A stretch of 25,283 bases of DNA from a virus (lineage: Duplodnaviria; Heunggongvirae; Uroviricota; Caudoviricetes): IMG/VR virus record IMGVR_UViG_2597490260_000006; one strand, given 5' to 3'. The notes beneath the pieces are model-generated. The model was not told where the DNA came from and ran no database searches. It saw nothing but the letters and a program-made list of their open reading frames with translations. The translations under genes were made by a program, and so were the position numbers. Shown here in pieces: positions 7,336 to 17,378 of this stretch; the stretch's first letter is position 1, and each line of letters starts with the position of its first letter.

Positions 7336-7665
7336 CTATGCCACGACCTGTTCAAAATCTGCCGTTATGGTTACCCACAACGCCCCCACGCTTGCCGACC
7401 ATTTACGACAAACCACCCTGATCGGCTTCCAGTCATAAGGTGGCGTCCACTGAAATGCGCGGACGCCACCGTGCCGTTCCAGAAAGGATTTTAAAGATGG
7501 GTGTTCACATTTACGAACACGTATCGTCACGCTGTAAGTCGACAACTGGTTATTCAGTCCCGCCGCACGACGCTGTTCATAACCATCGCCCAGCTTCACT
7601 GTCACCACTTTCGGCTCTGATACCACATTCATATCCGGGCGCACTTTCCAGTGAAACGTCTCCAT
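7336..7665 (-). CDS. M: Minor tail protein M
   Basis: 109 aa; METFHWKVRPDMNVVSEPKVV...TADFEQVVA matches recalled lambda gpM; its ATG shares one base with the H stop codon. Confidence 0.9.
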   Translation of the reverse strand: METFHWKVRPDMNVVSEPKVVTVKLGDGYEQRRAAGLNNQLSTYSVTIRVRKCEHPSLKSFLERHGGVRAFQWTPPYDWKPIRVVCRKWSASVGALWVTITADFEQVVA

Positions 7666-10600
7666 TACCGATATGCTCCACTTAACCGACCACCATCACG
7701 GGCCTGCTGTTGCATAAAGTCCGCTGCCGCTTTTTTCCCAAGGTCATAAACCACCTTCAGGGCAGCAGGACCTATCTGCCCGTTCGTGCCATCGTTATTG
7801 ATCTCGATGTTGTACTGCGGGGCAAACATCGCCATACCTGAACCACCAATATCCGCCACAACCCCCAGCTTACCGTCAGCACCACGACGCAGTGGCAGAA
7901 TGGCTTCAGGTCCAGCTTCCCCCATCACACCCGCGCCTTTTGCAAAAGCAAAAAACGTCGGACGGTTAACCACCGTGCCACTGTAGCGACTCAAATCAGC
8001 CGACTGATAAACACCGCCATCAGCATTGGCTACAAAATCAAAAGGCAGCGCGGAAGCAATGCCTTTTACCGCTTTCATTAAAGCTATCTGAGCCATGATT
8101 CTGGACATATCTGACAGCACAGAAGAGGTGAAGGATTTGAAATTGAGTTTGCCTGTAGTACAGAATGTCGCCAGCCAGTCACTCATGCTACTGAACGCAG
8201 ACGTGAACAACTGTTCCACTGTCCCGGCTGTGTTATCCGCATTCTCAGTGACATTCTGGAGTGCACGCAGGACTCCGTTTTTCCAATTACCCTGAGCAAT
8301 TTCAAGCCGTTGCCAGTAACGGCGATTCTCATTCAGTTGTCGGTTCAGACTCTCCGTCAGCGCCTGCTCGGCCTTTCTGTAGTCATCCGTGTTATATGTC
8401 CCTTTCTGCTCACTATCCCGCCTCAACTGCTCCAGCTGTTGCTGGTATTTCTGGCGAAGACTCAGTTGTACCTGATATCGCTGCCGCTGCTGATCACCCA
8501 TACCCACCGTGGCGATATCCAGGTCATGTTGCTGACGCTGAGCGCGCTCTTCTTCAGCCAGTTGACTGGTCAGCTGAATTGTTTTTTTCTTCAGATCGTT
8601 GAGTGCCGTCTGTTTCTGAAGCTCCTGCTGTTTTACATCCAGCAGCGTCAGTGCCTGAATCAGTTCATCTTTACGGGCCAGCACACTCTTTTCATCTGCC
8701 GTCAGTTTTTTCCCGTCCAGATCGCTGATGCGCTGCTGCAGAGCCAGAAGCTGTTTATGCGCTTCTGTCATCTTTTCAGTGGCAATGCCTGCTGACTGTC
8801 TTGCAGCAGCAATCTGTCCTTCCACCTGTGCCTGTTGCTGACTGTACTGCAGCAATAACCGGGTGGCCTCATCATTACGGGTTTCGCGTGTTTTTTTCTT
8901 ACCGGATGCCAGGGCTTTCTCGTAACGTTCATTTTCACGTTGTATCGCCGCATCCCTGACAGCCTGATCGGCGTACTGCATGGCATTAATACGCGCAATT
9001 TCACGCTGATGTCGTGCAGCTTCCGTTTCATTCATCCGGTTCAGTGCAGCATTTTCAGCATTACGGCGTTTCTGTTGCTCCTGATAATTCCGCTCTGCCT
9101 GCTCTTTTGCATCCTGCAAATCCTTCTGGCGTTTTTTCTCCTGAAGATCGTTAAGACGCTGCTGATCGTATTCAACCTGAGAAGATGATGCCGTCCAGGG
9201 GAGTCTTTTCGCCCGCGACACTTTCTCCTGCAAAGTGGCAATCTGCGCATCCAGCGAATCTTCACGACCAATATTCATGGCCGCATCCCAGAACTGCTTC
9301 CACCAGTCAGACAAAGTTTGCAGCGTACTGCCCAGCGCATTGAGGTTATTATCAATATCCGCAGTACGCCGACCGGTTTCCTCTGCCAGTGCAGACATGG
9401 CTATCCGTGCCGCATCACTGGACCGCCCCTGCTCTCCAAGGACGCGTATCTGCTCAAGCTGAGTGGCAGTAAGAAAATGCAGCTCATTGTCCAGAGACTT
9501 CGCGGCATTTACAGGATCATCCTTCAGCCGCTTAAACTGATTTATGGTATCGCTGACCGACTGGCCAACCGATCGCTCCATCTGTGCGGCAGCTCTCGCC
9601 ACCATACCGATATCGTTTCCACGAAATGCACCACTCCCCACCACCTGAGCCAGCGCACCGGCTGCAGCATGTTGCGTGATACCATTCCCGGAAATAGCAC
9701 GACTGAGCGTCCACAGCTGCCCGGCAGTGACTCCGGCATAATGCCCCGTCAGCGACAGCTGGCGGTTAAATTCTTCCCCCTCCTTCTGACCGTCATACCA
9801 GGCTTTACCCAGGCCATAGACAGCCGCGGCAATACCGCCAATAACCCCGCCAAGCATCATGCCTTTCGGTGACATCAATGTGTCTATCCACCCGGCACGG
9901 TTAGCCAGCGTTATTCCGGATCCCCTCAGCGCACCTAAATTTCCGCGGGCCAGTTCACCTATCAGAACGCCTATCTCCTGACGGGCCGCTGCACTTTTCA
10001 GCCCCAGCGAATGCGTGGCTTTTCCTGCCTGCTCCATTTTGCGGATATACACTTCTGCAGCACTGCTTACCCCCAGCTGGGCAGCCTTGGCACGAAGCAA
10101 CTCAGAAGAAGAAAGATTCTGGCGGGTTGCCTGCTCTTTAAGCTGACGGATAAACGCCACTTTCTGTCGGGTAGCCTCTTCCTCAGCCTGTGTAAGAACA
10201 CGGGTTTTCGCCGTAACCTCAGAAATCAGCGCCAGATAATCCTGCTGACCAATCCCGCCACTGTTTCTGGCCTGTCGGATCTGCTGCTGAATACGCTGTA
10301 ATTCCTGCAGACCCGCACTGGCCTGTTTCACACTGTCAATCTGACGATAAAACGCAGCAGCCGCTTTATCCTGAGCCTCCGCCAGAGCCATGGCCTGCGC
10401 CTGTTCCTCGCGCATTTTCTGGCTCAGCGCCTCCATACGCTGGCGGGTTTTCTCCACCTCGCGGGCCATGCGTTCATGAGCCTGTGCGTTCTTCTCCACC
10501 GTCTGCGCATGGACGGATGCGGCTGTTGCAGCCGAAGACGCCGCCTGCGTTGTCTGCCGGGCGGCCTGAGTCTGACGCTCCATAAAACGCTGCATACGGG

Positions 10601-10721
10601 CAGAAGACCGTTCTGCATCGCTGGCTGCACCATTCAGAAGGTTTTTGATACGGGGGATTTCATTTTTAAACTCTGCCGCATCAATCCCCAAATCAATGAC
10701 CAGGTTGGCTATCTGGTCCAT
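7665..10721 (-). CDS. H: Tail tape measure protein H
   Basis: About 1018 aa, Ala/Gln/Glu/Arg-rich coiled-coil-like sequence throughout, positioned between T and M. Start placed at the ATG at 10721 (MDQIANLVIDLG...) with GGAGG 8 nt upstream; the track ORF starts 30 nt earlier inside the T frame. Confidence 0.85.
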   Translation of the reverse strand: MDQIANLVIDLGIDAAEFKNEIPRIKNLLNGAASDAERSSARMQRFMERQTQAARQTTQAASSAATAASVHAQTVEKNAQAHERMAREVEKTRQRMEALSQKMREEQAQAMALAEAQDKAAAAFYRQIDSVKQASAGLQELQRIQQQIRQARNSGGIGQQDYLALISEVTAKTRVLTQAEEEATRQKVAFIRQLKEQATRQNLSSSELLRAKAAQLGVSSAAEVYIRKMEQAGKATHSLGLKSAAARQEIGVLIGELARGNLGALRGSGITLANRAGWIDTLMSPKGMMLGGVIGGIAAAVYGLGKAWYDGQKEGEEFNRQLSLTGHYAGVTAGQLWTLSRAISGNGITQHAAAGALAQVVGSGAFRGNDIGMVARAAAQMERSVGQSVSDTINQFKRLKDDPVNAAKSLDNELHFLTATQLEQIRVLGEQGRSSDAARIAMSALAEETGRRTADIDNNLNALGSTLQTLSDWWKQFWDAAMNIGREDSLDAQIATLQEKVSRAKRLPWTASSSQVEYDQQRLNDLQEKKRQKDLQDAKEQAERNYQEQQKRRNAENAALNRMNETEAARHQREIARINAMQYADQAVRDAAIQRENERYEKALASGKKKTRETRNDEATRLLLQYSQQQAQVEGQIAAARQSAGIATEKMTEAHKQLLALQQRISDLDGKKLTADEKSVLARKDELIQALTLLDVKQQELQKQTALNDLKKKTIQLTSQLAEEERAQRQQHDLDIATVGMGDQQRQRYQVQLSLRQKYQQQLEQLRRDSEQKGTYNTDDYRKAEQALTESLNRQLNENRRYWQRLEIAQGNWKNGVLRALQNVTENADNTAGTVEQLFTSAFSSMSDWLATFCTTGKLNFKSFTSSVLSDMSRIMAQIALMKAVKGIASALPFDFVANADGGVYQSADLSRYSGTVVNRPTFFAFAKGAGVMGEAGPEAILPLRRGADGKLGVVADIGGSGMAMFAPQYNIEINNDGTNGQIGPAALKVVYDLGKKAAADFMQQQARDGGRLSGAYR

Positions 10722-11043
10722 AACGCACACCTCCGGAAATACCTTCCCCAAGATGCATCAGTTCTTCGTCCGTTCGCTCCGGTATCCCGTTCTCTTCCGG
10801 TAAAAGGCTGAAATCAGCCACCGCAGCATCACTGCTGCCGGACACCATTCTCACGATCAATGCCTTCAGCGAGGCAAACTGCGCATCCATCCACACATCA
10901 CTGAAGCTCTGCATCCGGAAATAATCGCCCCACTCACCAAGCTCAGTGGCCGACATTTCCGACAGCATCCGCCGCCAGTCTGCCCGCCGGAACTCCCGGG
11001 CAAGCCGCATGACAAACTGCATTTCCCGCGTCAGGACTTTTCC
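10693..11043 (-). CDS. T: gpT reading frame, expected to be expressed as a G-T fusion by -1 ribosomal frameshift
   Basis: ORF in the -1 frame relative to G, overlapping the last codons of G, with no independent RBS. I checked the frame by hand: at the coding-strand sequence CCG GAA AAG TCC TGA, stepping back one base reads GGA AAA GTC CTG ACG CGG GAA ATG CAG... and runs to the stop at 10693. Confidence 0.7.
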   Translation of the reverse strand, partial: GKVLTREMQFVMRLAREFRRADWRRMLSEMSATELGEWGDYFRMQSFSDVWMDAQFASLKALIVRMVSGSSDAAVADFSLLPEENGIPERTDEELMHLGEGISGGVRYGPDSQPGH

Positions 11044-11417
11044 GGCGTCAGCACCTCATGCTCCAAATCCCCGGCATTATCAATGGCCCCCATACCGCTC
11101 AGCGACAGAACCATCTCCGCCCCCGCACCCAGGGCATCATACGACCATGTTGTAATAACGGATGCGCAAAGCGTCTCTACATCCTTAGACTGATCCGCAT
11201 TCCACAGTGAGCGGGAAACCAGCCAGGCATTGATATCCATCCCCATCCGCAGAAAAGCAATCTGTCGTTCAGCCTCCGGCAGTTCTCCCTCACCGGCATC
11301 AAACTTTGCCGTTCGCTGCTGAACAAACGCCAGATATTCAATTCTCTGCAACCCGGACAGCTCACTGAGCACCACGGACTGTTTTTCATAATTAAACGTG
11401 CCCTGTTTCAGAAACAT
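11031..11417 (-). CDS. G: Tail assembly chaperone G
   Basis: Start taken at the second of two adjacent ATGs (MFLKQGTFNYEKQSVVLSELSGLQRIEYLAF...), GGAG about 6 nt upstream; resembles recalled lambda gpG; lies between V and H. Confidence 0.8.
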   Translation of the reverse strand: MFLKQGTFNYEKQSVVLSELSGLQRIEYLAFVQQRTAKFDAGEGELPEAERQIAFLRMGMDINAWLVSRSLWNADQSKDVETLCASVITTWSYDALGAGAEMVLSLSGMGAIDNAGDLEHEVLTPEKS

Positions 11418-11433
11418 CATGTTCTCCACCTGC

Positions 11434-11457
11434 AAAAAAGCCCCGGATAACCGGGGC
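11434..11457 (-). terminator. Intrinsic terminator between V and G
   Basis: Minus strand reads GCCCCGG-UUAU-CCGGGGC followed by TTTTTTG, 20 nt after the V stop. Confidence 0.6.
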
Positions 11458-13897: not shown

Positions 13898-15856
13898 TTA
13901 CGCCGTACATTTCACCAGACCGCGGTGATCAACTGGCGCGACACCGGCGTCAATACGCACTTTCGTTGTCACGCCATCCACACTGAAGCCCTCCATCTGA
14001 TCAATATATGGCGTATCCACACCGTTGAGATAAGCCACTTCAATCGTATCGGAGCCTTTGGACGCAGCCAGGTAGAAAGTGGTCTGGCTGTTATCATCAA
14101 GACGAGGCTCTGCAATAACGGTCGCAAAATCTTTCACCGGGTTAATAATACCGGCGTTAATGTCAGCCCCCTTGACACTTGAGGAGCGAATGACCTGGTT
14201 AGCAACAGACTCCATCGCCGTCGGTACCAGTACGAACGCAGGACGAATATTCAGATGACGCTCCCCCTCTTTCTGAACGCGCATCAACTGGCGGGCTTTA
14301 TCCAGCGATGCCACGTCCATTGCAGCGCTCTCCAGTACGTTTGCATGTTTCGCTTTATCGAACAGACTTACATTATCTGTGGAGATTTTCGGGTTAGACG
14401 TCAGAATGGCATAAACCAGATCGGCAATAGTGGATTTCGCCGCACGGCCCAGTTTCATCGGGACATCGGTCAGCATATTCAGATCATCATTGATAATGGC
14501 CTGACGGGTGATACTGAACAGCTCGCCATAGGTCGCCAGTGCAATAGTGGCCTGTTTATCTCCGGTGGTGACGTATTTATATTCCGCCCCTTCACGCACC
14601 TTACGCAGAGCACTGAAGCCCCCCATACCCACACGATGGGCAATTTTAAAATCAGACAACTGACCTTTCCGCGTCCACTGTTCATAGGTTTCAGGGGCAT
14701 CTTCCCAGCCCTGCAGAATGGCTTTGTTCGCAACATCCAGCAGAATATTACCGAAGTCAGACGTACTGTGTGTGAACGCCGCACCGACCATCTGCATCGG
14801 GTTATAACTGGAAACACCAATACCCCGTTCAGTCAGTGACATACGGGCATATTCACGCAGAGTCATCCCGTTGTAGACATTATCACGTTCGGTTTTTTCA
14901 AATCCGGCACGCGCCATCAGCGCCTGGCGGATCCCGTCCCCCACAAAATTACCGTTACCGGCATAAATATGAGCCGGGGTATTTTTATTGGATGGCGTGG
15001 ACTCGCGCCCCATCTCGTTCAACAGCTTTTCGCGGGCCTGCTCCAGCGAACATTCAGGATCGGCAAGGCACTGAGCCTGCAGCGTCTGATAACGCCCGCC
15101 AAACATGGCAAACAGATCATTAATACCGTTTACACGCGCTTTTTGCTCTGCCAGTACCTGCGCACGGATACTGTTTTCATCCAGCACGGGTGCTGCTGCC
15201 TGCACTGGCGTCCGGGAGGCTGCAGGTTCATTATCCTGTACGCGTGGAGCACTGTTACGTGGCGGAGTAATCATGTTTCGAATGGATTCCGGCATCTTTT
15301 TAAATTCCTCTGTACGTTTTGACTGAATACATGCCATTGCCTTAACGGCTGGCGTCACCTGATCAGCAAATCCCTGTGCCAGACATTCGGCACCGGACAT
15401 CCAGGTCTCATCCGCCAGCATGGCAGCAATTTCATCGGTGGTTTTCCCGGTTTTCTGTGCATAAGCGGGTAACAGAACCGCCTCAACTTTATCGAGCAGG
15501 TCGGCATAGGTGCGCATGTCCTCCGCATCACCGCCCGTAAAGCCAAATGGTTTATGAATCATCATGAAGGTGTTTTCCGGCATAATGACCGGGTTTCCCA
15601 CCATCGCAATGACCGACGCCATTGACGCCGCCACACCGTCGACATAAACGGTAATGGACGCACCATGTGTTTTCAGTGCATTAAAAATGGCGATGCCTTC
15701 AAAGACATCGCCACCCGGTGAATTGATATGGAGATTAATGTGGGTGATATCGCCCAGTGCATTCAGATCACTGATAAACTGCTTCGCCGTAACACCCCAG
15801 AAACCAATCTCGTCATAAATATAAATATCCGCATCACTCTGGTGACCAGCCTGCAT
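13898..15856 (-). CDS. Fused prohead protease (ClpP-like) - scaffold - major capsid protein
   Basis: Start placed at the first ATG after the portal stop (MQAGHQSDADIYIYDEIGFWG...), about 652 aa. N-terminal region has ClpP-type motifs (HINSPGGDVFEG, AASMASVIA, MMIHKP). It is followed by a Gln/Ala/Glu-rich linker and a long C-terminal domain in the position and size of a major capsid protein. Confidence 0.75.
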   Translation of the reverse strand: MQAGHQSDADIYIYDEIGFWGVTAKQFISDLNALGDITHINLHINSPGGDVFEGIAIFNALKTHGASITVYVDGVAASMASVIAMVGNPVIMPENTFMMIHKPFGFTGGDAEDMRTYADLLDKVEAVLLPAYAQKTGKTTDEIAAMLADETWMSGAECLAQGFADQVTPAVKAMACIQSKRTEEFKKMPESIRNMITPPRNSAPRVQDNEPAASRTPVQAAAPVLDENSIRAQVLAEQKARVNGINDLFAMFGGRYQTLQAQCLADPECSLEQAREKLLNEMGRESTPSNKNTPAHIYAGNGNFVGDGIRQALMARAGFEKTERDNVYNGMTLREYARMSLTERGIGVSSYNPMQMVGAAFTHSTSDFGNILLDVANKAILQGWEDAPETYEQWTRKGQLSDFKIAHRVGMGGFSALRKVREGAEYKYVTTGDKQATIALATYGELFSITRQAIINDDLNMLTDVPMKLGRAAKSTIADLVYAILTSNPKISTDNVSLFDKAKHANVLESAAMDVASLDKARQLMRVQKEGERHLNIRPAFVLVPTAMESVANQVIRSSSVKGADINAGIINPVKDFATVIAEPRLDDNSQTTFYLAASKGSDTIEVAYLNGVDTPYIDQMEGFSVDGVTTKVRIDAGVAPVDHRGLVKCTA

Positions 15857-15869
15857 CCTGAACCAGGAA

Positions 15870-17378
15870 TTATTCTTCGGACTGGTTGTTGGTGTGCTGC
15901 GGCTCCTGTCGTTTCGTTGCGGCACTGCTGCCTCCTTTATCACTGGCCGGATCGGTATCAAATACCAGATCCAGCTTGCGGTTTTCATCAATTTCGGCCT
16001 TGCGCCGACGTTTGACATCATCCGGATTACGACCACCAGCACGTACCCAGTCTGATTCTGTCGCCGCTCCACCACGAATCTGGATTTTCCAGGCCTCAGC
16101 CTCCTTAACAGGGTCAATCCACGGCATCACCGGTCCGGAATACACCGCGGTATACAGTGAAGAACGGTCAAGATCGCGGGGTAGCCTGATAACACCGGAT
16201 GCCACAGCCTGTTTCAGCCAGGCACGGTACATCGGGCGGGTGACGGCACCAATAAACCAGTCCTGCAGGATCAGGTAGCCATCAGTGGATTCAACCAGCT
16301 CCTGACGCTGGGCGCTGTAAGTGCCGTTATAGTTGCGCGCTGTACTGGAAAAACTCAGACGACTGCCAGCCGCCACGGCACGCAACTGACCATTACGAAA
16401 AGTTTCAAGGTTAGGATTGGGACGATCCGACTTCACCATTCCGATTTCTTCGCCGGGTTTCAGATCGTCGTAAATAATGCCTGGCTGAATGGTAAGCTCG
16501 CGTTCATTCTCCTTGCTGTCATTACCATCCGTTTCATAGCTCTGTCCGTCGCCTTTCCGGATGTACATCCCCAGAGCAGCGGCGATCCTTGCTGCAGTCA
16601 GCTCAGAATCTTCATACTCTTTCAGGGCGCTGAGGCGGATCAGCACACCGGACAATAAAGACGTCCCGCGCATCTGGTGCAGACGGCGAACAAATTTAAG
16701 ATGCAGCATTCGCTCTGCATCCACTTCTTTGGTTTCCATCTGCCGTCCGGATACAGGACGACTTTTATACACCAGATATTTTTCGGGACGCCCCCAGTCA
16801 TCAACAAACACGCCCTGATTCAGCCTGTTGCTCTCATCACTGGTCATGGGAATAAAGTCCGGCTCGAGCGCCTCCAGCCAGAAATGAACACCGGCAGAAG
16901 GCGTCAGGCTGTTTATGCGCCCGGAAACCATCTGGGCAAACACCTCACCATCGCGCAGCCAGGTACGCAGCATCAGACGTTCCAGCATCGGACGGGTAAA
17001 CTGCCCGGTGACTTCCGGACTGACAGACCATTCACTCCATCGGGTACGTATCTCCGCTGCCAGGTCACGGGCAATGGCACCATTGCGTAATACCGGATGT
17101 GGCTCGACAATAATCCCGTTTTTCCCCACCACCCGTTCTTCCAGCTTGTCAAATACACCAATGACCAGATCGTGGTTGTTATCAAGGTAACGGGCCTGCT
17201 CACGTAACGACACGGCCCCGTACTGGCTTAACTGGTCGGCAGTTCGGTTCTCCCGTCGGGCTTTGTGTGTCCGCGTCGTTTTTACGGCCTCATAAGCTTG
17301 GATCACCGCTCGGGAACGCAGCCTTGCCGCTTTCCATCCTGGTGAAAAAACGCCAATCACATCATCAAGAATTGCCAT
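15870..17378 (-). CDS. Portal protein
   Basis: Start placed at the ATG at 17378 (MAILDDVIGVFSPGWKAARLRS...), which shares one base with the W-like stop (TGATG) and has GAGG 5 nt upstream. About 502 aa between the W-like gene and the protease-capsid gene. Confidence 0.8.
   Translation of the reverse strand: MAILDDVIGVFSPGWKAARLRSRAVIQAYEAVKTTRTHKARRENRTADQLSQYGAVSLREQARYLDNNHDLVIGVFDKLEERVVGKNGIIVEPHPVLRNGAIARDLAAEIRTRWSEWSVSPEVTGQFTRPMLERLMLRTWLRDGEVFAQMVSGRINSLTPSAGVHFWLEALEPDFIPMTSDESNRLNQGVFVDDWGRPEKYLVYKSRPVSGRQMETKEVDAERMLHLKFVRRLHQMRGTSLLSGVLIRLSALKEYEDSELTAARIAAALGMYIRKGDGQSYETDGNDSKENERELTIQPGIIYDDLKPGEEIGMVKSDRPNPNLETFRNGQLRAVAAGSRLSFSSTARNYNGTYSAQRQELVESTDGYLILQDWFIGAVTRPMYRAWLKQAVASGVIRLPRDLDRSSLYTAVYSGPVMPWIDPVKEAEAWKIQIRGGAATESDWVRAGGRNPDDVKRRRKAEIDENRKLDLVFDTDPASDKGGSSAATKRQEPQHTNNQSEE

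Follow-up and report, generated by a model that had tools for sequence, protein, structure and literature searches.

In phage lambda, a low-level −1 frameshift sets the ratio of the tail assembly chaperone G to the fusion GT at about 30:1, a proportion that is needed for tail assembly, with G binding the tape measure and T recruiting the tube protein (Atkins 2016, PMC5009743). Comparable pairs are annotated as genes 14/15 of N15 (NC_001901) and as G/G-T of phi80 (FN582354), where both records label a GGAAAAG heptamer "slippery sequence for -1 translational frameshift" (coordinates 10027–10033 in N15) and the phi80 record contains a joined G-T CDS. More broadly, no tetramer in E. coli is more prone to shifting than A_AAG, at which frameshifting rises to 5.6% when the IS3 pseudoknot is present and is close to background when it is not (Sharma 2014, PMC4066793), and NNA_AAG sites are in natural use, as in the G_CGA_AAG of IS1222 (Atkins 2016, PMC5009743). 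Literature text searches returned no phage paper that discusses the GGAAAAG heptamer, and what is said here of its earlier recognition draws on reviews and GenBank annotations.

The window analyzed here, by which we mean the whole stretch of 25,283 nucleotides from IMG/VR record IMGVR_UViG_2597490260_000006, belongs to a lambdoid prophage or phage of the mEp460/cdtI type with E. coli as its host. Over the 901 bases around the site in question, the window is 98–99.4% identical to 17 phages isolated from E. coli, among them mEp460, cdtI, Ayreon, Tritos, and PhiR47_1, and the same module is found in 1,848 of 5,426 complete E. coli genomes; E2348/69 is one strain that carries it. The layout of the G/GT family is present, with two overlapping open reading frames between the tube and tape-measure genes, the second of which lies in the −1 frame. 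Read along the minus strand, tail tube gene V is followed by a terminator-like hairpin, G, the −1 frame (T), and the tape-measure gene:

12296–11478, minus strand: tail tube gene V, lambda-type (PF16461, Phage_TTP_12, plus Big_2).
11434–11457, minus strand: terminator-like hairpin (11457–11440) and T-run between V and G, not in the shift signal.
11031–11420, minus strand: gene G, tail assembly chaperone of 129 aa, from the ATG at 11420 (the first of two ATGs) to the TGA stop at 11033–11031.
10693–11055, minus strand: −1 frame (T), preceded by a stop at 11058–11056, open from 11055, terminal stop at 10695–10693.
11052–11057, minus strand: Shine–Dalgarno (SD)-like GAGGTG, 8 nt upstream of the heptamer.
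11037–11043, minus strand: proposed shift site G_GAA_AAG, with P-site codon GAA at 11042–40 and A-site codon AAG at 11039–37.
11020–11022, minus strand: ATG annotated as the start of T in RefSeq and the phage records, probably not the real start.
7665–10721, minus strand: tape-measure gene, with its ATG at 10721 preceded by GGAGGTG at 10734–10728, annotated as tape measure protein in all relatives.

Pfam, PHROG, and tblastn searches confirm that the two overlapping frames are homologs of gpG and gpT. The first matches PF06894 (Phage_TAC_2, E=5.5e-39) and PHROG 42, goes by the RefSeq name "phage tail assembly chaperone G", and is 33% identical to lambda G (E=3e-9, tblastn), and the second matches PF06223 (Phage_tail_T, E=5.1e-15) and PHROG 39. 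A terminator is annotated at the place equivalent to our hairpin in mEp460, Ayreon, and N15. An earlier sequence-only reading of this stretch had placed T in the −1 frame relative to G, overlapping its last codons, and this is borne out by an overlap of 25 nt (11055–11031).

That reading had also singled out G GAA AAG at 11037–11043 as the only heptamer at the overlap. A mechanical scan agrees, with coordinates that are exact, as G_GAA_AAG is the sole X_XXY_YYZ or Z_ZZN-type candidate within the 25 nt. In the 0 frame, the 3' end of G reads CCG (11045–43), GAA (11042–40), AAG (11039–37), TCC, TGA; a slip of one base would leave the two tRNAs paired with GGA (11043–41) and AAA (11040–38), with GUC (11037–35) as the next codon. 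The heptamer was correctly said to depart both from the X_XXY_YYZ pattern and from the G GGA AAG of lambda, which we verified in J02459. The bare string GGAAAAG has 7 matches in the window where 3.5 are expected, an unremarkable count, and the significance of the site thus rests on its frame and position and not on the string alone. The base calls, which the reading had proposed to check in other assemblies, are sound: CCGGAAAAGTC is present in 78 of 78 IMG/VR relatives with an intact G (80 were fetched, and 2 with disrupted G genes were left out), which excludes a canonical GGGAAAG at the site. Three isolated phages share this sequence, as do genomes of E. coli, E. ruysiae, Shigella, and others, and hundreds of independent assemblies agree on the heptamer.

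For a census of the family, G/T junctions were gathered from diverse phages and, by a scan with an alignment of eight G-T fusions, from one genome per bacterial species, giving 57 distinct sequence contexts (phages and Enterobacterales genomes) after the removal of duplicates. All of these contexts have the slip-site Lys codon at the same place, exactly 12 codons ahead of the ARE(F/M) motif of the T domain, and since in-frame A_AAG is rare elsewhere in G genes (0.65% of codons), such identical placement is far beyond chance. The heptamer is G_GAA_AAG in 44 of the 57 and the lambda-type G_GGA_AAG in 4, with G_GTA_AAG in 3 (Pantoea), G_GCA_AAA in 2 (Kluyvera and Ewingella), A_GAA_AAG in 2 (Morganella), and A_AAA_AAG (phage 1720a-02) and G_GGA_AAA (Providencia) in 1 each. 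When contexts are clustered at 70% amino acid identity, G_GAA_AAG is found in 17–18 of 24 clusters. Lambda's own heptamer is missing from 53 of the 57 junctions and any X_XXY_YYZ heptamer from 51, so the canonical heptamer is not a true defining feature of the G/GT family. The "non-canonical" G_GAA_AAG is the majority form and lambda's canonical heptamer the minority, and the former, annotated as it is in N15 and phi80, is neither unusual nor new. The position of the 0-frame stop is not fixed, lying 0, 1, or 5 codons past AAG by lineage, with Proteus, Morganella, and Providencia having the stop immediately after AAG.

The heptamer is also constrained in ways that the encoded residues would not require. 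At the 46 GAA-class sites, base 1 is G in 44 (96%), compared with a background of 43% G at the third codon position for these amino acids in the remainder of those G genes. The preceding codons to which this base belongs are GCG (19), CCG (11), CTG (9), TTG (2), ACG (2), GTG (1), and GCA (2), and they encode Ala, Pro, Leu, Thr, and Val. GAA encodes the slip-site Glu in 46 of 46 sites (100% vs 59% in the rest of these genes), and AAG encodes the slip-site Lys in 46 of 46 (100% vs 33%). Binomial estimates of chance fixation are about 6e-6 for G1, 8e-5 for GAA, and 2e-9 for AAG, where some 18 clusters below 70% identity are treated as independent at saturated synonymous sites. GGAAAAG is, moreover, the only wholly invariant block in a nucleotide alignment of 21 junctions. 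Together, these comparisons indicate that selection at the heptamer acts on nucleotides, not amino acids.

No conserved stimulator of frameshifting was found at the site in single-sequence folds, in a consensus fold, or in a census of SD-like elements. Neither the 87 nt downstream of the site nor a 191-nt stretch around it folds more stably than shuffled sequences do (z = 0.08 and −0.63), and an RNAalifold consensus built from 21 diverse loci with G_GAA_AAG reaches −1.5 kcal/mol with no covariation, on which grounds a downstream stimulatory RNA was rejected as part of the signal. Upstream, GAGGTG is predicted to form a duplex of −9.2 kcal/mol with the 3' end of 16S rRNA, a strength of −8 kcal/mol or below being seen in just some 4% of background windows. 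In roughly half of its close relatives the weaker GAGGCG (−5.6 kcal/mol) stands in its place, and family-wide there is no enrichment of SD-like elements (16% of 67 contexts at or below −6 kcal/mol vs 15% in the background). An upstream SD-like stimulator was rejected as a family feature because it is not conserved even in close relatives, and GAGGTG is a possible lineage-specific stimulator or local modifier.

Read through the shift, the predicted GT fusion has 242 aa, 128 from G and 114 from T, with T translated post-shift from 11040 and the conceptual junction joining ...LTPEK to VLTREMQF.... It aligns without gaps across this junction to seven relatives (Fels-1, lambda, phi80, an Stx2a phage, 1720a-02, mEp237, and a Klebsiella phage) at 33–60% identity, and three residues do not vary, the slip-site Lys (K128), E133, and F136, two of which lie upstream of the ATG at 11022. 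In addition to the PF06894 and PF06223 domains and the placement between tube and tape-measure genes, this gap-free alignment and the invariant Lys support the earlier suggestion that the locus uses the conserved −1 frameshift of the G/GT tail chaperones. Four database proteins do contain both domains in one frame and were considered as independent support from natural fusions; each stands alone in its cluster and has an internal deletion that spans the junction, probably an assembly error or a deletion variant, and we set them aside as uninformative.

From the alignment and the constraint on the heptamer, G_GAA_AAG at 11043–11037 is very probably a functional −1 frameshift site of the G/GT pair, and a GT fusion product is predicted for this heptamer. 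The databases present the locus otherwise, as RefSeq/PGAP and all 17 close phage records give T as a separate open reading frame, with no slippage join and no GT fusion. By that account there would be no frameshift, and T would be a protein of 109 aa made from the ATG at 11022–11020, a codon that does exist and is used as the start in these annotations. This Met is not conserved, however, and the corresponding stretch offers no start codon in lambda, phi80, mEp043, and others. Protein conservation extends upstream of the ATG to K128 and includes the residues between the shift site and the annotated start, all relatives have the −1 frame opening shortly ahead of the heptamer, and the latter is itself under nucleotide-level selection. 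The sole SD-like, purine-rich stretch, GGGAA, abuts the ATG with no spacer, and in lambda the T sequence arises as the frameshift-derived part of gpGT (Levin 1993, Xu 2013, summarised in PMC5009743). As the T frame lacks a conserved initiation site and the fusion is colinear with its relatives through the junction, we consider a stand-alone T very improbable. Still further from likely is that the fusion arises by transcriptional slippage, with an extra A in the A4 run, or that an original GGGAAAG was altered here by a sequencing error or a pseudogenising indel. A short AAAA homopolymer is indeed there, but productive realignment in transcription needs runs longer than 7 A or 8 T (PMC3711429), and an error or recent mutation is excluded by the recurrence of the heptamer not only in the many independent assemblies but in at least 17 protein clusters below 70% identity. 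The best explanation of the locus is thus, with good probability, a programmed −1 site of a lambda-type G/GT chaperone pair in an mEp460/cdtI-like E. coli prophage.

In the mechanism that we propose, most ribosomes would read ...Pro-Glu-Lys-Ser-stop and release the 129-aa G, and a small fraction would slip back by one base with tRNA-Glu on GAA in the P site and tRNA-Lys on AAG in the A site. The tRNA-Lys of E. coli prefers AAA to AAG, and this single species (anticodon mnm5s2UUU) would re-pair from AAG to the preferred AAA, a slip that had been described as standard from the letters alone and that holds as such. In the P site, tRNA-Glu (anticodon mnm5s2UUC) would re-pair from GAA to GGA, with G:C at position 1, G.U at position 2, and A:U at position 3. 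The mismatch that had been anticipated for this step is real, and it has likewise been classed as a second-position mismatch by others (Peng 2019, PMC6924986). After the slip, GUC would be read in the T frame to yield the 242-aa fusion, and GT, if it behaves as in lambda, would bind the tape-measure protein through its G part and recruit the tail tube protein through its T part.

Published work bears on how costly such a slip might be. E. coli has one tRNA-Lys (PMC5009743), and the change from AAG to AAA is favourable by −2.9 kJ/mol (Bock 2019, PMC6787027). A purine-pyrimidine change from A.U to G.U at the first position costs about 5 kJ/mol, in a thermodynamic data set without second-position changes (Bock 2019, PMC6787027), and this G.U cost would be partly offset because of the 2.9 kJ/mol gained in the A site. 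In a reconstituted system, AUG_GAA_AAG gave mainly the 0-frame product and served as a "less slippery" control (Peng 2019, PMC6924986), and the authors of PRFect invoked re-pairing of GAA to GGA through G.U for mycobacteriophage chaperone sites (PMC10885494).

That both tRNAs slip in tandem, with a G.U at the middle position of the P-site codon, seems to us somewhat the better supported of the possible mechanisms, because G1 would pair with C36 of tRNA-Glu, and conservation of G1 is predicted by a tandem slip and not by a slip in the A site only. This is weakened by G_GTA_AAG, G_GCA_AAA, and A_GAA_AAG, whose P-site codons re-pair poorly, which suggests that full P-site re-pairing is not obligatory. 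The main rival, which we hold less likely, is that the same site and product are used but that tRNA-Lys slips by itself on the A_AAG tetramer or NNA_AAG hexamer (Licznar et al. 2003), with re-pairing of tRNA-Glu unneeded. Such a slip would suit the finding that A_AA(G/A) is the sole element common to all 57 junctions and that the P-site codon varies (GAA, GGA, GUA, GCA, AAA), some variants (GUA, GCA) being unable to re-pair, and summaries of the literature describe slipping of A_AAG in the A site only, with help from a wobble-prone tRNA one codon earlier (PMC5009743, PMC10861913). The 0-frame stop directly after AAG in Proteus, Morganella, and Providencia is also in keeping with it, and where the stop is so placed a related version is plausible, in which it is peptidyl-tRNA-Lys that slips, already in the P site, before the A site is filled. 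A slip of tRNA-Lys alone gives no reason, however, for the excess of G1 over background at the GAA-class sites across five amino acids, and shifting on the tetramer is about 10-fold weaker than on a heptamer and needs a strong stimulator (Sharma 2014), of which none was detected here. The protein product is the same whether one tRNA slips or two; the occurrence of the shift, its efficiency, and the preferred re-pairing by both tRNAs are what we infer from the sequence comparisons. There is, in addition, a slim chance that the preference for this heptamer reflects something further, be it that ribosomes in vivo accept a G.U in the middle of the P-site codon much more readily than has been assumed, that a stimulator has gone unrecognised, or that a GT:G ratio lower than that of lambda is optimal for most of these phages. 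Candidates for such a stimulator are the acidic nascent C-terminus of G, the nearby 0-frame stop, and ribosome queuing.

Biologically, the feature would be a standard tail-assembly frameshift, and little changes in that respect. It does expose an annotation gap, in that the GT fusion is omitted by RefSeq and by the close phage records for a very common E. coli prophage lineage, and frameshift finders limited to X_XXY_YYZ will overlook the form that most of the G/GT family carries. There is also a modest mismatch between laboratory and phage, as biophysicists have used G_GAA_AAG as a "less slippery" control and yet it is the form preferred in nature here. A natural, strongly selected −1 site with a putative second-position G.U in the P site offers a convenient test case, and not a discovery.

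Among the known systems to compare is E. coli dnaX, a −1 shift on the canonical heptamer A_AAA_AAG with a conserved SD and a stem-loop, and with an efficiency of about 50–80%. AAG occupies the A site in both, and GAGGTG at 8 nt upstream resembles the upstream stimulator of dnaX, but the three-element cassette is not reproduced in the window, where the SD-like element is not conserved and the stem-loop is absent. Others are the low-level A_AAG and NNA_AAG motifs (Licznar 2003; Sharma 2014; G_CGA_AAG of IS1222; A_CGA_AAG of B. subtilis cdd), which share with the window the A_AAG core, tRNA-Lys(UUU), and a P-site codon that is not XXA with identical X. The window has an in-frame A_AAG in an E. 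coli host as this class does; the strong downstream pseudoknot or hairpin that accompanies such motifs, where they are not incidental, has no detectable counterpart in the window, and base 1 is conserved in addition. With lambda G/GT (Levin, Hendrix and Casjens 1993; Xu, Hendrix and Duda 2004, 2013, 2014) the window has in common the gene family, the position, the −1 direction, the A-site slip from AAG to AAA, a shift site that is likewise without conserved downstream structure, and a tape-measure gene whose start overlaps the end of T as at lambda T/H. The canonical G_GGA_AAG, checked at the homologous position in J02459, is one base from the heptamer of the window, and the P-site tRNA-Gly of lambda undergoes only a change at the wobble position, whereas tRNA-Glu in the window would have to take a G.U at position 2.

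A further close match is to N15 and phi80. Their preceding codon is GCG (Ala) and ours CCG (Pro), their 0-frame stop lies 5 codons past the heptamer and ours 1, they have no SD-like element upstream where the window has GAGGTG, and their GT identity to the window is only about 36–37%. Even so, the Pfam families and gene order are those of the window, N15 resembles the window in the terminator-like stem-loop that separates its tube gene from G, and both phages carry the identical GGAAAAG at the homologous position, 12 codons before ARE. The window has the same G_GAA_AAG in the G frame with the same 12-codon spacing, and the feature is in this sense already known: it is the G/GT programmed frameshift, in a heptamer variant that phage annotators have recognised for years.

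The G/T junction, at which a -1 frameshift is predicted to yield the GT fusion, carries a variety of slippery heptamers at the homologous site in related loci. The following are listed as non-canonical, with the middle codon in the P site and the last in the A site:

G_GTA_AAG: Pantoea (L148, L149, L165)
G_GCA_AAA, then a stop at once: Kluyvera and Ewingella (L104, L106)
A_GAA_AAG, then a stop at once: Morganella (L108-L110)
G_GGA_AAA, then a stop at once: Providencia (L147)

Wherever the A-site codon is AAA instead of AAG, the next codon is a 0-frame stop.

The fusion is missing from the RefSeq/PGAP annotation and from all 17 close phage records, and a frameshift is marked only in the records of phi80, N15 and phage 21. 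T appears instead as a stand-alone ORF of 109 aa in RefSeq/PGAP and 17 of 17 close records (for example at 779-1108 of L176 and 979-1308 of L002), with its start assigned to a non-conserved ATG (11020-11022 of the window, minus strand); the Ayreon record places the start still further downstream.

A G/T junction identical to that of lambda is found on about 15 contigs (L151-L163, L172, L174, L175), many of them short and with coverage of about 1x, from assemblies of unrelated organisms that include Neobacillus, Oceanobacillus, Kitasatospora, Shewanella, Pseudomonas, Leeuwenhoekiella, Chromatium, Paenibacillus and Pseudoxanthomonas. These are almost certainly contamination by phage lambda control DNA. 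Taxonomy is implausible for three metagenome-assembled genomes, labelled 'Bacillota bacterium' (L096), 'Proteobacteria' (L098) and 'Geobacteraceae' (L140); G/T is 92-98% identical in the first two and clearly enterobacterial in the third, and all three contigs are likely mis-binned enterobacterial prophages. The G and T domains are joined in one frame in four singleton proteins (P0001-P0003, P0021), where internal deletions across the junction create the single frame; these are probably assembly or indel artefacts rather than natural fusions.

Two further features lie in the window:

11434-11457, minus strand: GC hairpin with a T6 run, separating V (tail tube gene) from G
13898-16117, minus strand: 739-aa ORF, candidate protease-capsid fusion, from translation

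The hairpin has a perfect 7-bp GC stem (GCCCCGG-TTAT-CCGGGGC) followed by T6, and a rho-independent terminator is annotated at the equivalent position in the mEp460, Ayreon and N15 records. Transcription passing from the gene of the abundant tube protein into those of the chaperone and tape measure may be attenuated here. As read from its translation, the N-terminal part of the 739-aa ORF resembles a ClpP-type prohead protease; if this holds, the C-terminal part would be the major capsid protein, and the ORF would have the fused protease-capsid arrangement of some lambdoid prophages.
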